A stretch of DNA of 48,190 bases from Candidatus Thorarchaeota archaeon (GTDB lineage: Archaea > Asgardarchaeota > Thorarchaeia > Thorarchaeales > Thorarchaeaceae), in assembly GCA_004524445.1 (NCBI GenBank), contig SDNP01000023.1, forward strand, positions 1 to 48,190, in the 5' to 3' direction. Below the pieces are notes generated by a model. That model worked only from the letters and a program-made list of their open reading frames with translations, made no database searches and was not told where the DNA came from. Position 1 is the first letter of the stretch. Each line of letters opens with the position of its first letter. Shown piece after piece: positions 10,598 through 14,689 of the stretch. The translations under genes were made by a program, and so were the position numbers.

Positions 10598-11746
10598 TCA
10601 GCCATATCGCATGCTGGAGCCGGTATTCAGAACAACAATTTCCTCGTCGTAGTCTACAATGCTGCTTTCAACCAAGTTCCTGAGACCAGAAAATCCTACA
10701 GCGGCTTCCGGGCATATATCAATGCCCTCAATTCTGGGTACCAGTTTCATCATGGGTTTTACTTCTGCCTCGGCTACCGCAACGGCGCCTCCTTCTGACT
10801 GGTTGATAATCTTCATTATTAGTCGGTCTGCAAAAGGTGATGGAACTCTTAGCCCGAAGGCGGAGGTTTCAGCATCAGTCCATGGTTCGATATCCCCTGA
10901 ATTCTTTTCGTACGCCCTTACAATTGGTGCGCATCCTTCGCTTTGCGCAGCAAACATCCGTGGTGTCTTGCGTTCAAGCAACCCGATTTGCTGTAGTTCC
11001 TCAATCCCCTTCCAAATCCCTAGCATTGCTGTTCCCCCTCCCGTGGGGCAAACGATAACGTCCGGTATATTCCAATCCAACTGTTCGGCAATTTCAAATG
11101 CTAGAGTCTTTTTGCCTTCCACTCGGAAGGGTTCTTTCGTAGTTGAAAGGTTTGTCCACTTCCCTCCAGCCTTGGCCATGGCTTCTCCACAATCTGAAAT
11201 ATTGCCATCGACTTCGTGAATTATTCCTCCATACATTTCACAGCCTTCAAAGAACGCCTTAGGCGTATCCTTTGGCATGAAGATATCAGCCTCTGCATTT
11301 CCTGCTGCTGAGTAAGCACATACTGAAACCGCCGCGTTCCCAGCTGAGGGCAATGCGAATCTTGTGGATCCAAGTTCTAGATGTTTTGATATTGCAACTG
11401 ATATTCCTCTATCTTTGAAACTGAGTGTCGGATTTCGAGCCTCATCCTTTACCCTAAGATTCTGAAGCCCTAGATGCTTTCCAAGCCGATTTGCAAACAA
11501 GAGCGGGGTCCATCCTTCTCCCAATGTGGTTATGTTTGATGGAGGTCTCACGGGAAGCAAATCTGCATATCTCCACAAAGAATTCTCGGTTGATGGGAAT
11601 TGATTAGACTGGGCAGCTTCTTCAACCAGCTTCATATTGTATCGTGCAAATAGAGGTGATCCACAGACGCAGTATGAAACATCTCTCCTTACAGAATGAC
11701 TTCTTCCACATGCAGGGCATTCAAGATGAGTCAGTCGTGTGAACAC
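10598..11746 (-). CDS. thrC: Threonine synthase-like PLP enzyme
   Basis: N-terminal CxxC...Cx[22 protein letters not shown] (PLP Lys), EGKKT, PTGGG, NTG. Confidence 0.85.
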
Positions 11747-11820
11747 TAAATCAACTCATCTTTACTTCTATCCTCACTGTTATATGTGTCTGTGCCTTTT
11801 GGGGTTCGGAGGCAATAGAA

Positions 11821-13014
11821 CTGGAAACTGGTGAACGACTAGTTCTACCATTCACTGCATTAGTTGGCCTAGAGCGCCTTAAGCTAGCCCTACTGCTAAA
11901 TGGAGTGAATCCACGAATTGGTGGCGTTTTGGTCTCTGGTCCTAAGGGAACGGGCAAGACTACTATTGTCAGGGCCTTTGCGGATCTTCTGCCTGAGGTC
12001 GAGGTGGTAAAAGGTTGCCGCTTTGGCTGTAATCCAAACAATCCCGATGCGTTGTGTGCTGAATGCCGTACACGAAGAGATGACGGTGAGAAAATAGAAA
12101 CCACAACGCGGAAGATGAGAGTGGTGAATCTCCCTCTTTCGACCACAGAAGACCGCCTTGTGGGTTCGCTTGATATTGAGAAAGTCCTGCAAGAGGGAAT
12201 TCAAGCTCTGAAGCCCGGAATTCTAGCAGAAGCGCATCAAAACGTTCTCTATGTTGATGAAGTGAATCTTCTTCCTGACCACTTAGTTGATGATCTCCTT
12301 GATGCAGCGGCGACAAAAGTGAATGTGATAGAACGTGAGGGCATATCGATTTCACATGCTTCTGATTTTGTTCTCATGGGATCGATGAATCCCGAAGAAG
12401 GAGAATTGCGGCCTCAGCTTCTTGATAGATTTCCACTCCATATATCAGTAGGAGGAAAACATAGCATTGAGGAACGCATGGAACTAGTTAGACGAAATCT
12501 AGAGTTTGAAAAAGATCCTGATGCTTTCTCTAAGAAATGGTCGGAAGAGCAAAACGAGTTAAGGCGCAAAATTGTCCAAGCGAGAGAACTAGTGGACTCC
12601 GTATTCCTGCCGGATGCAAAACTAAGAGCTATCGCAATGGCTTGCGATGCATTGGAAGTCGACGGTGTCCGACCTGATATCATAATCAGCAAAGCCGCAA
12701 TTTCTCTGGCCGCATTTGACGGGAGAAAAGAAGTAAATCTTGAGGATATGAAATTAGCATCTCAGCTGGCTCTGAGCCATCGTACTAGACGTGGAGGTCT
12801 ATTGGAGCCACCCTCTGCTTCGGAGATTGACGAATCTATCTCGAAGGCACACGAAGTCGCCAAAAAAAGAGACAAGAGAAAATCGCCAACAGAAATGACT
12901 GAGGAATCCAAGGATAAATCTGGCCCCAGGATGAGTGGTGGCAAATTCGGTCGCCAGTCAACAGTTGCAGAAACTGATATGGCAAATGGCAAAAAAAAAC
13001 TCCGAAGAAAATAA
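11821..13014 (+). CDS. chlI: Magnesium/cobalt chelatase ChlI-like AAA+ ATPase (0-frame product)
   Basis: GPKGTGKT Walker [17 protein letters not shown] Walker [16 protein letters not shown]. The conserved [15 protein letters not shown]-terminus lies upstream of the GTG call; CTG at 11821 follows GGAGG (11808-11812). Confidence 0.88.
12991..13000 (+). other. Putative programmed -1 frameshift / slippage site (A9C)
   Basis: GGC AAA AAA AAA CTC. The -1 frame is open from 12978 through the vWA ORF; the 0 frame stops at 13012-13014. Confidence 0.7.
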
Positions 13015-14492
13015 GAAATCCAAGGGGTAATCCCATAAAGGGAACAATCCTCGTAATTATGATGGTCGTAGCTTTCTCATATTTTGCTTGGCTTGCTTTC
13101 AGCCCAATCAATTTTCTATTCGGAATTCCATTTGCCACATTTCCTCCTGCCCCGTTAATCATCATCAATTCCATTCTATACATTCCACTCATCTTTCTTT
13201 TAATTCGGAGATGGCTCCGTACAATGATGAACAGAAAGGGTGGTCCTGCTGCTGGGATTGATACTGTGGAGCCTGGCAAGGCGGTCGCAGAACCCGGTGA
13301 TGAGTGGGGGACAGCGACAAGATCGTATAAGGCAAAAGCCGAGTCTAAGGTAACAGGATCAAAATCTGAGATTCGTGGAACGCCCCTTACGCTAGATGAC
13401 GGGTTTTTCGTGAAGACGCCAGATATGGATACTGGGCAGCCTCTCTTCGACCCCGAGAAACTGAAGGCTAGAGCGATGGTTAAATCGAAGGTGTCGTCAG
13501 GTGGATGGAGTGATAAACGGGTCAGTTCACGAGCCACGGGGAGCCTAAAAGCATCGGAAACAGAGAAGCATGGACGCCCAACTAGGTCACGTAGACCTCA
13601 TAGGGAAATCTCAAACATTCACCTCCCCTCAACATTGTTGGCTACTGTTCTTCGAGAAGGCAAGAATAGAGAGGGCAAAGGCATTTCCATAAAAGCTGAA
13701 GATATCAGGGAGACTGTATTTAGTGGGAAGACCCCCCTGACTGTCATACTCGTTATTGATGTGAGTCTCTCAATGAAGAGAAGCATGTCAGAAGTGCGTA
13801 AATTGGTCGAAAGGGTAGAGAGAGAAACCAGAGGCTCCAAGGACCGAGTCGGAATTGTTGCCTTCAAAGACAGTGGTGCTGTAGAGATTCAAGCACCAAC
13901 AACCAACTGGAACAAAATCTATCGCTCACTCGCGAGGCTGCGCATTTCTGGTCTAACCCCTCTTGCTGATGCCTTGGTGAAGTCTCTAGAATCCATAAAG
14001 CGCGAACGAATGAGAAACGACCTAATTGAACCACTCGTTATAGTCATCTCTGACTTTAATCCAAACATACCCTTGGCTCAATCTGTTGGCCCCGGGCATG
14101 AAAGATATACTCCAATTAGAGACCTAGTGCGAGCATCACGAATTCTGAGGAAGCAGAAGGTACGAGTTGCGACAGTGAGCGTTGACTATGAGCAAGCGAA
14201 TTTTTCCAAATTTCTGAAAAGGCCGTTTCATGATGCTATGGAACTTGCAGCTCTACTCAGGATGAGAAAGGAAGGGTACAATGATATAATGGAGACCATT
14301 CTGTCCGTTCCTCCGTTCCGAAAAACATTCGGCGCGTATATTATTGCCCGTGCCAGTGGGGGACATGCCTTTCTTTCTAAGGAACTCCTGAACGCTCAAT
14401 CTGTGATTGGCACGATTCTGGCAGCAATTGAATCTAAGACAAAAATGAGTGTCAAGAATCTTCGTGAGGTAAAATCCTATTTGCAGCGCTGA
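12999..14492 (+). CDS. chlD: ChlD-like C-terminal part: two TM helices, linker, vWA domain (-1 frame; ORF track start 13059)
   Basis: MIDAS DVSLS, GLTPLA, ISD. ChlD-type IHLPSTL...I...DIRE segment precedes the vWA. No SD before ATG 13059. Confidence 0.8.
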
Positions 14493-14540
14493 TTTCCAAC
14501 AATCAATCTGAATAATGCCGTCTCGATTAGATTATTAGCG

Positions 14541-14679
14541 CCCATGTGAAGCGATATTTGCGTACGGGATCCCACCATTTCCTGATGTCATAGTGAGTGT
14601 TGAGAGCCCTGAATTGGGTATTCGATGAAATCACTTTTCATACTTCAGGAACAGGGCCCGTATGCACTATTTACATGGG
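14541..14679 (+). ncRNA. Candidate long imperfect hairpin RNA / leader element
   Basis: Nested stems CCCATGTGAA/TTTACATGGG, TGCGTACGGG/CCCGTATGCA, TTCCTGA/TCAGGAA, AGTGA/TCACT, GCCC/GGGT, with G-U pairs on the + strand. Confidence 0.55.
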
Positions 14680-14689
14680 GAATGATTGA

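Follow-up and report, generated by a model that had tools for sequence, protein, structure and literature searches.

The stretch of DNA analyzed here (hereafter the window) comprises 48,190 nucleotides (nt) of contig SDNP01000023.1 (assembly GCA_004524445.1, forward strand) from a Candidatus Thorarchaeota archaeon, and it contains a chlI/chlD-like gene that is divided between two overlapping reading frames. We found that the frames are joined around a run of nine adenines (A9), that the run and the frame offset are conserved in nearly all related sequences, and that the -1 frame is under protein-level selection ahead of its first ATG. Very probably, the gene is recoded at the A run, by slippage at either the transcriptional or the ribosomal level. 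A preliminary description, made from the sequence alone, had already read the locus as one gene with a slippery site, and this reading is supported by the conserved run, the selection on the -1 frame, and natural in-frame fusions that carry one extra A.

In the proposed mechanism, standard decoding would start at CTG 11821, pass through the A9 run, and end at the stop codon at 13012, producing a soluble ChlI-type AAA+ ATPase with a predicted length of 397 amino acids (aa). A fraction of events would involve a base gained or re-read on the run, giving a net -1 shift, and reading would then continue in the frame that is open from 12978 to 14492. The resulting product is predicted to have 890 aa and to consist of the ATPase, a two-helix hairpin, a disordered linker, and a vWA domain with a metal-ion-dependent adhesion site (MIDAS). 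By analogy with ChlI/ChlD, the short and long products may co-assemble, and the slip rate would then set the ratio of soluble to membrane-tethered subunits. In public annotation, the locus appears as two genes ('ChlI' and 'VWA domain-containing protein'), and both 17 conserved codons directly after the run and the fusion as a whole are missed.

Conservation of the A run and the frame offset

As read from the sequence, the ATPase frame ends in GGC AAA AAA AAA CTC CGA AGA AAA TAA, and the -1 frame, closed by a TGA at 12975-12977, is open from 12978 to its stop codon at 14490-14492. The two frames share an open stretch of 34 nt (12978-13011), with the A9 run at its center. An extra A in the mRNA (A10) and a ribosomal -1 slip on the A_AAA_AAA heptamer would give an identical junction peptide. 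The sequence confirmed the anatomy given in the preliminary description, including the end of the ATPase frame, the TGA, and the passage of the -1 frame into the vWA open reading frame (ORF); the overlap, put there at about 35 nt centered on the run, and the products, put at about 397 and 890 aa, were recovered with practically the same values.

To describe the junction in relatives, we pooled 46 distinct Thorarchaeota sequences from whole-genome searches, fetched regions, and a species-genome collection. A -1 split was present in 43 of them (A9, n = 35; A10, n = 4; A11, n = 3; A7, n = 1), one sequence had a +1 split with A9, and two were in frame with A10. At the same place, 45 of the 46 junctions had 9-11 A's in a row; thus, the comparison of run and offset among orthologues that had been proposed as a check came out in favor of the slip. 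The run started in codon phase 0 in 38 sequences, in phase 1 in two, and in phase 2 in six. In all split orthologues, the zero frame ended 0-60 nt past the run, and in most of them exactly 12 nt past it.

The run is kept even where codon usage opposes it. In two loci with a local GC content of 58-61% (L015 and L017), lysine upstream in the gene is encoded by 0 AAA vs 10-11 AAG codons, and the junction is still AAA AAA AAA. Seven genomes have a TAA closing the -1 frame that takes in the first A's of the run (GGTAAAAAAAAA); the two frames there overlap by only 10-19 nt, and a shift is therefore possible only on the run itself. Additionally, a second in-phase site, CC A_AAA_AAA TAA, lies 12 nt past the main run in one genus (g9, genomes G023 and G009). 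Both sites are present in G009 (L019, 2683-2705; minus strand of the stored locus, plus orientation of the gene), and in G023 (L011, 2670-2705) the main A9 run is broken by a G (AAAAAGAAA), leaving only the A7-plus-stop site. This replacement of one site by another is the pattern expected under selection for a slippery sequence.

In-frame fusions were found in genome G012 (A10, 888-893 aa), in locus L052 (A10), and in an 880-aa metagenome protein of the Joint Genome Institute (P0124, A11), which is not counted among the 46. Reading in these variants passes directly through the run region, and their products are exactly the fusion predicted for the split gene. In all three, each of the two alternative frames meets a stop after 1-8 codons, and therefore a slip there would still yield the short ATPase.

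The in-frame copies also bear on two explanations at the DNA level. Homopolymers are error-prone, and the in-frame length seen in two species genomes and one metagenome copy would fit a gene that is truly an in-frame fusion and appears split because of an error in sequencing or assembly or because of recent pseudogene formation. However, 43 independent assemblies share the split, keep both frames intact, and conserve the early zero-frame stop, which makes such an artifact extremely improbable. Alternatively, replication slippage between A9 (off) and A10 (on) could act as phase variation, with the long protein made only in A10 cells, and in-frame A10 or A11 copies do occur in at least three separate lineages beside split relatives with A9 or A10. 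Yet 44 of 46 genomes, which come from many different studies and habitats, have the split as their consensus state, and an intact, conserved vWA frame is present throughout. Expression from the split state is therefore required, and phase variation as the source of the long protein is highly unlikely.

One metagenome-assembled genome of Thorarchaeota (L040:2900-2990) retained A9 and had one G fewer upstream (GAGGC vs GAAGGC), which places its vWA frame in +1; a genuine +1 variant and an assembly error are the two possible explanations.

Evidence for translation of the -1 frame and level of the putative slip

How the long product would be made can be judged from the 17 codons that separate the run from the first Met of the -1 frame. 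Entropy over this segment, taken by codon position of the -1 frame, was 0.53/0.27/1.43, a three-base periodicity, and the peptide (I/V)RNPRG(D/N)PIKGTI was conserved with synonymous changes. In 29 of the 40 copies that could be evaluated, no ATG, GTG, or TTG was present between the -1-frame stop and the conserved peptide; among the other 11, the sole candidate in nine was an occasional GTG at the I/V position, and two (L018 and L026) had an ATG. The pattern of substitution thus indicates that the segment is translated in copies where independent initiation is not possible. From the periodicity, the conserved peptide, and the general lack of a start codon, it follows that the long product would enter the -1 frame at the run.

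This segment also argues against two independent genes, an ATPase ending at 13014 and a hairpin-vWA protein starting at ATG 13059, with the A run as a plain lysine stretch. Such an arrangement is what more than 120 annotated clusters of 475-477-aa 'VWA domain-containing protein' depict, with their start at the position of ATG 13059; an ATG stands at or beside this position in 22 of 22 aligned orthologues, and downstream initiation occurred beside frameshifting in some constructs of Antonov et al. (PMC3711429). However, the -1 frame is under protein-level selection 17 codons ahead of that ATG, AAA AAA AAA is retained against codon usage, the frame offset is conserved, and natural fusions differ from the split form by a single A. 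No Shine-Dalgarno (SD) sequence lies within 5-10 nt of ATG 13059, as the preliminary description had stated, and the Met at this position is also found in uninterrupted outgroup fusions. Two separately initiated genes as the full account are therefore very unlikely, and recoding at the run is the reading that we retain.

Sequence alone does not tell slippage of RNA polymerase from slippage of the ribosome, and published reporter data on run length, with frameshifting in E. coli of 10%, 40%, and 63% for 7, 9, and 11 A's (PMC3711429), do not separate the two levels either. We lean slightly toward polymerase slippage as the main route because at least nine A's appear to be selected, no conserved downstream stimulator was found, and the +1 and in-frame variants keep the run. 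That the run starts in each of the three codon phases was counted in the same direction. A ribosomal contribution is likely as well.

A purely ribosomal route, namely programmed -1 frameshifting on A_AAA_AAA with a downstream RNA structure, would be a sub-case of recoding at the run, and it may, with somewhat less than even probability, be the main one. Every copy has an in-phase heptamer (A_AAA_AAA or A_AAA_AAG) whatever the phase of its run, and in G023 only the in-phase A7 is left, with the zero-frame TAA directly after it. The literature presents its cases as frameshifting on A_AAA_AAR (PMC5009743, PMC3711429), and an SD-like purine stretch (AGGAAGG or GGAG) stands just ahead of the run in many orthologues. 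Against this, the heptamer requires seven A's and at least nine are kept in 45 of the 46 copies, the upstream SD-like stretch is missing in the window, and the evidence for a downstream structure is negative. RNAalifold predicted 0 pairs on 22 orthologous junctions, and the fold computed for 12985-13085 of the window alone did not stand out from shuffled sequences (z = 0.11). The GGG/CCC triplets at 13024-13043, suggested in the preliminary description as short pairings, are present in the sequence; they start 25 nt past the run, beyond the usual distance of a stimulator, and correspond to Pro/Gly codons. Covariation of the two possible helices (alignment columns 58-60/66-68 and 48-50/58-60) did not exceed that of shuffled controls, and these triplets are not supported as an RNA stimulator. 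The earlier proposal of programmed -1 frameshifting is thus supported insofar as the A run is the probable slip site, with the ribosome and RNA polymerase both as candidates for the level at which the slip occurs.

As for the region upstream of the run, purine-rich SD-like stretches (AGGAAGG, GGAGA, or GAGGA) were seen 3-12 nt ahead of it in most genera (e.g., L008, L019, and L033), where they encode Q-E-G or G-D-G; the window lacks such a stretch (ATGGCAAATGGC). They could represent an upstream stimulator similar to that of dnaX or a mere coding constraint.

Several points weigh against recoding as proposed here, or against the level favored. First, an ATG is retained at or next to 13059 in all aligned orthologues, and separate initiation of a hairpin-vWA protein may serve as an extra route. 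Second, outgroup Asgard families have an uninterrupted gene of 876-900 aa with hydrophobic linker segments and no A run, and at least one outgroup genome (G035) has no separate short ATPase gene; therefore, the short product is not obviously essential to the protein family. Third, the A7 variant suggests that a heptamer is enough for a ribosomal slip, and it thereby weakens the lean toward polymerase slippage; the A7-plus-stop site of G023 should be a poor substrate for the polymerase. Finally, that the slip takes place in this organism is concluded from comparison of sequences.

Since the homologues of the outgroup Asgard families are uninterrupted and lack the run, the split appears to be specific to the Thorarchaeota family among the genomes searched. 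A search for fused relatives with the linker region returned four proteins of at least 488 residues with a similar linker, only one of which was a full fusion (P0124); the linker is too divergent to be traced beyond Thorarchaeota in this way. Additionally, a distant Asgard genome (G029) has several ChlI/ChlD-like copies, two of which contain an in-frame TAG or TAA (G029:C23:13608-14669 and G029:C14:34488-35509) and could be pseudogenes, further cases of recoding, or assembly faults.

Domains of the two predicted products and possible function

The features of the locus are listed in Table 1.

Table 1. Coordinates of the chlI/chlD-like gene and its elements in the window.
Feature	Position	Strand	Basis or remark
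GGAGG (11808-11812), 8-nt spacer, and CTG (11821-11823)	11808-11823	+	Probable non-canonical start of the ATPase frame
Zero-frame ORF, ChlI-type AAA+ ATPase, 397 aa (short product)	11821-13014	+	NCBIfam, Pfam, and PDB matches
Putative A9 slip site (GGC AAA AAA AAA) with in-phase A_AAA_AAA heptamer	12991-12999	+	Kept at the same place in relatives
Predicted long product, -1-frame part (497 codons following the slip)	12999-14492	+	TIGR02442, Pfam, and codon-position entropy
Zero-frame TAA, end of the short product, 12 nt past the A9 run	13012-13014	+	Sequence
Membrane hairpin of two helices, linking the AAA+ and vWA parts	13035-13232	+	Hydropathy and AlphaFold2 model
vWA domain with intact MIDAS	13584-14198	+	Invariant residues and modeled vWA fold

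The ATPase frame matched the NCBIfam model TIGR02030 (BchI-ChlI) with an E value of 1e-118, positions 2-355 of TIGR02442, the Pfam models AAA_5, AAA_lid_2, and Mg_chelatase, and a solved ChlI structure (8osf, E value of 6e-99). Its Walker A (GPKGTGKT) and Walker B (DE in LYVDEVN) motifs are intact. The -1 ORF matched positions 389-620 of TIGR02442 and 344-547 of TIGR02031, as well as the Pfam models VWA_2 and VWA. TIGR02442 describes a single fused family of 641 positions, which is matched in order by the ATPase frame and then by the -1 frame, and the two frames are therefore two halves of one gene type. The ATPase did not fall into the MoxR family (AAA_3 or bpMoxR type), the bpMoxR model of Pfam scoring 22.1 bits against a cut-off of 27 and the ChlI-type models scoring far higher. 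A search of the genome gave no further ChlI-type gene; a weak, MoxR-like match (E value of 3e-4) was the only additional one.

The ATPase frame probably starts at the CTG, judging from the alignment of starts. This codon aligns exactly with the ATG, GTG, or TTG of orthologues, eight codons ahead of a conserved LPF, and a genome of the same genus (G001) also has a CTG there. No ATG, GTG, or TTG is available in this frame between the stop at 11740-11742 and GTG 11905. The latter would be the expected choice of a gene caller, at the cost of 28 conserved ATPase residues. A TTATAT box was also noted at 11780-11785, upstream of the ATPase start.

The -1 part consists of a basic peptide, the membrane hairpin, a disordered linker, the vWA/MIDAS domain, and a helical C-terminal extension, in this order. 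Kyte-Doolittle profiles with a 19-residue window peaked at residues 12-41 and 48-73 of this part, with five K/R on each flank, and an AlphaFold2 model based on 36 homologues placed helices at residues 13-40 and 51-78, with predicted local distance difference test (pLDDT) values of 77-87. The hairpin is conserved in all orthologues. Given the basic flanks on both of its sides, the AAA+ and vWA parts presumably lie on the same, cytoplasmic face of the membrane. In the model, residues 83-196 are disordered and are followed by a vWA fold and a confident helical extension. The MIDAS residues D254 (13758-13760), S256, S258, T320, and D352 are invariant in the alignment. A Foldseek search with the -1 part returned vWA domains of Rpn10, NorD, ANTXR, and BatB (E values of about 1e-6), all generic vWA matches, and none specific to ChlD/BchD.

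The preliminary description had spoken of chelatase-type subunits; the homology holds, and the function appears different. Searches for the large subunit CobN/ChlH (PF02514) gave no match in the window's own genome (90% complete) and none in 41 genomes of the family (20 of high quality; this genome and 40 others), with positive controls matched. The simple cobaltochelatase reading suggested by the name of TIGR02442 was dropped on the basis of these searches, and a chelatase role is doubtful because no CobN/ChlH was found in any of the 41 genomes. The client is probably not the large subunit of a tetrapyrrole chelatase, and the membrane hairpin together with the lack of that subunit suggests a non-chelatase role of the ChlI/ChlD motor in this lineage. 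Short and long subunits may form a mixed ring docked at the membrane and acting on a client, as the likeness to ChlI/ChlD and, less closely, to NorQ-NorD and RavA-ViaA suggests. It is conceivable, as a tentative proposal, that the slip rate sets the ratio of soluble ATPase to membrane-tethered ATPase-vWA protein in a membrane-docked AAA+/MIDAS motor, that this motor serves a client other than a tetrapyrrole chelatase (e.g., in the maturation or remodeling of membrane complexes, similar to NorQD and RavA-ViaA), and that it reflects an ancestral, pre-chelatase use of the ChlI/ChlD pair in the archaeal lineage nearest to eukaryotes.

The gene order around the locus is shared across Thorarchaeota and comprises threonine synthase (-), the chlD-like gene (+), an AIR-synthase-related gene (+), and surE (-). 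The co-oriented AIR-synthase-related gene (TTG 14690) follows after a gap of 197 nt (14493-14689), and this order was kept in all Thorarchaeota loci examined. The product of this neighbor scored below every NCBIfam cut-off (HypE, 144 bits vs 251.6; ThiL, SelD, and methanogenesis marker 2), and it therefore provides no functional clue.

Comparison with known recoded genes and AAA+/vWA systems

The Thorarchaeota gene belongs to the published fs-chlD recoding class, the 'magnesium chelatase' cluster of Antonov et al. 2013 (PMC3711429) and of Kuznetsov, Milenkin and Antonov 2022 (PMC9227772), reviewed in PMC5009743. The mechanism class is thus not a new principle; it was published and tested between 2013 and 2022, includes archaeal cases in Methanocaldococcus and Methanococcus (PMC3711429, PMC9227772, PMC5009743), and bears out the poly-A chlD precedent named in the preliminary description. 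As in fs-chlD genes, the vWA frame lies in -1 behind the frame of a ChlI-type AAA+ module, with a poly-A joint at the boundary of the AAA+ part and the linker, and the slippery site lies in a short frame overlap and is conserved against synonymous drift. Each half is annotated as a gene of its own, some relatives have in-frame fusions, and short and long subunits would come from one gene. Furthermore, the locus resembles the 'stage 1' genomes of that class (PMC9227772), which make two AAA+/vWA proteins with no known chelatase partner and in which, as here, no large subunit is found.

The differences lie in the linker, the RNA, and the lineage. The Thorarchaeota linker spans about 250 residues and contains a conserved membrane hairpin, giving about 890 aa in contrast to the 641 positions of TIGR02442, and no conserved downstream RNA structure was found here, a feature described for the class as usual and not obligatory (PMC9227772). 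The present case comes from Thorarchaeota, and the literature searched contained no paper that names an Asgard one. New here are the Asgard lineage, the hairpin in the linker, and the lack of downstream structure. These results provide a deeply conserved, family-wide example of putative recoding at a poly-A site in Asgard archaea, a group with few documented cases of recoding, and the natural variants with A9, A10, or A11 in -1, +1, or in-frame states form a comparative series for polymerase vs ribosomal slippage.

A second comparison is with dnaX, in which slippage on an A run gives the two products tau and gamma, at the ribosomal level on A_AAA_AAG in E. coli and at the transcriptional level on A9 in Thermus thermophilus. 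There too, a homopolymeric A site leads to full-length and truncated AAA+ forms that co-assemble. The protein family is unrelated, however, and in the Thorarchaeota gene standard decoding would give the short form and slippage the long one.

Among chelatase motors, ChlI/ChlD (BchI/BchD) and CobS/CobT are similar in that the ATPase is a close homologue of ChlI and the long protein has a ChlD-type pre-vWA segment and a vWA domain with intact MIDAS. Unlike these systems, CobN/ChlH was not found in the window's genome or the 40 other genomes of the family, and the long protein is predicted to be membrane-anchored. In a further departure from ChlI/ChlD, the AAA+ module of the long subunit would be the fully active one, because it has the same sequence as the short product. 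The MoxR-vWA systems (NorQ-NorD, RavA-ViaA, and BatA/BatB) likewise pair an AAA+ ring with a MIDAS vWA adaptor, and vWA proteins of the BatA/B type are anchored in the membrane. The likeness is a functional analogy only: in Thorarchaeota, the ATPase is of the ChlI type, and the two partners would be supplied by one recoded gene and not by two genes.

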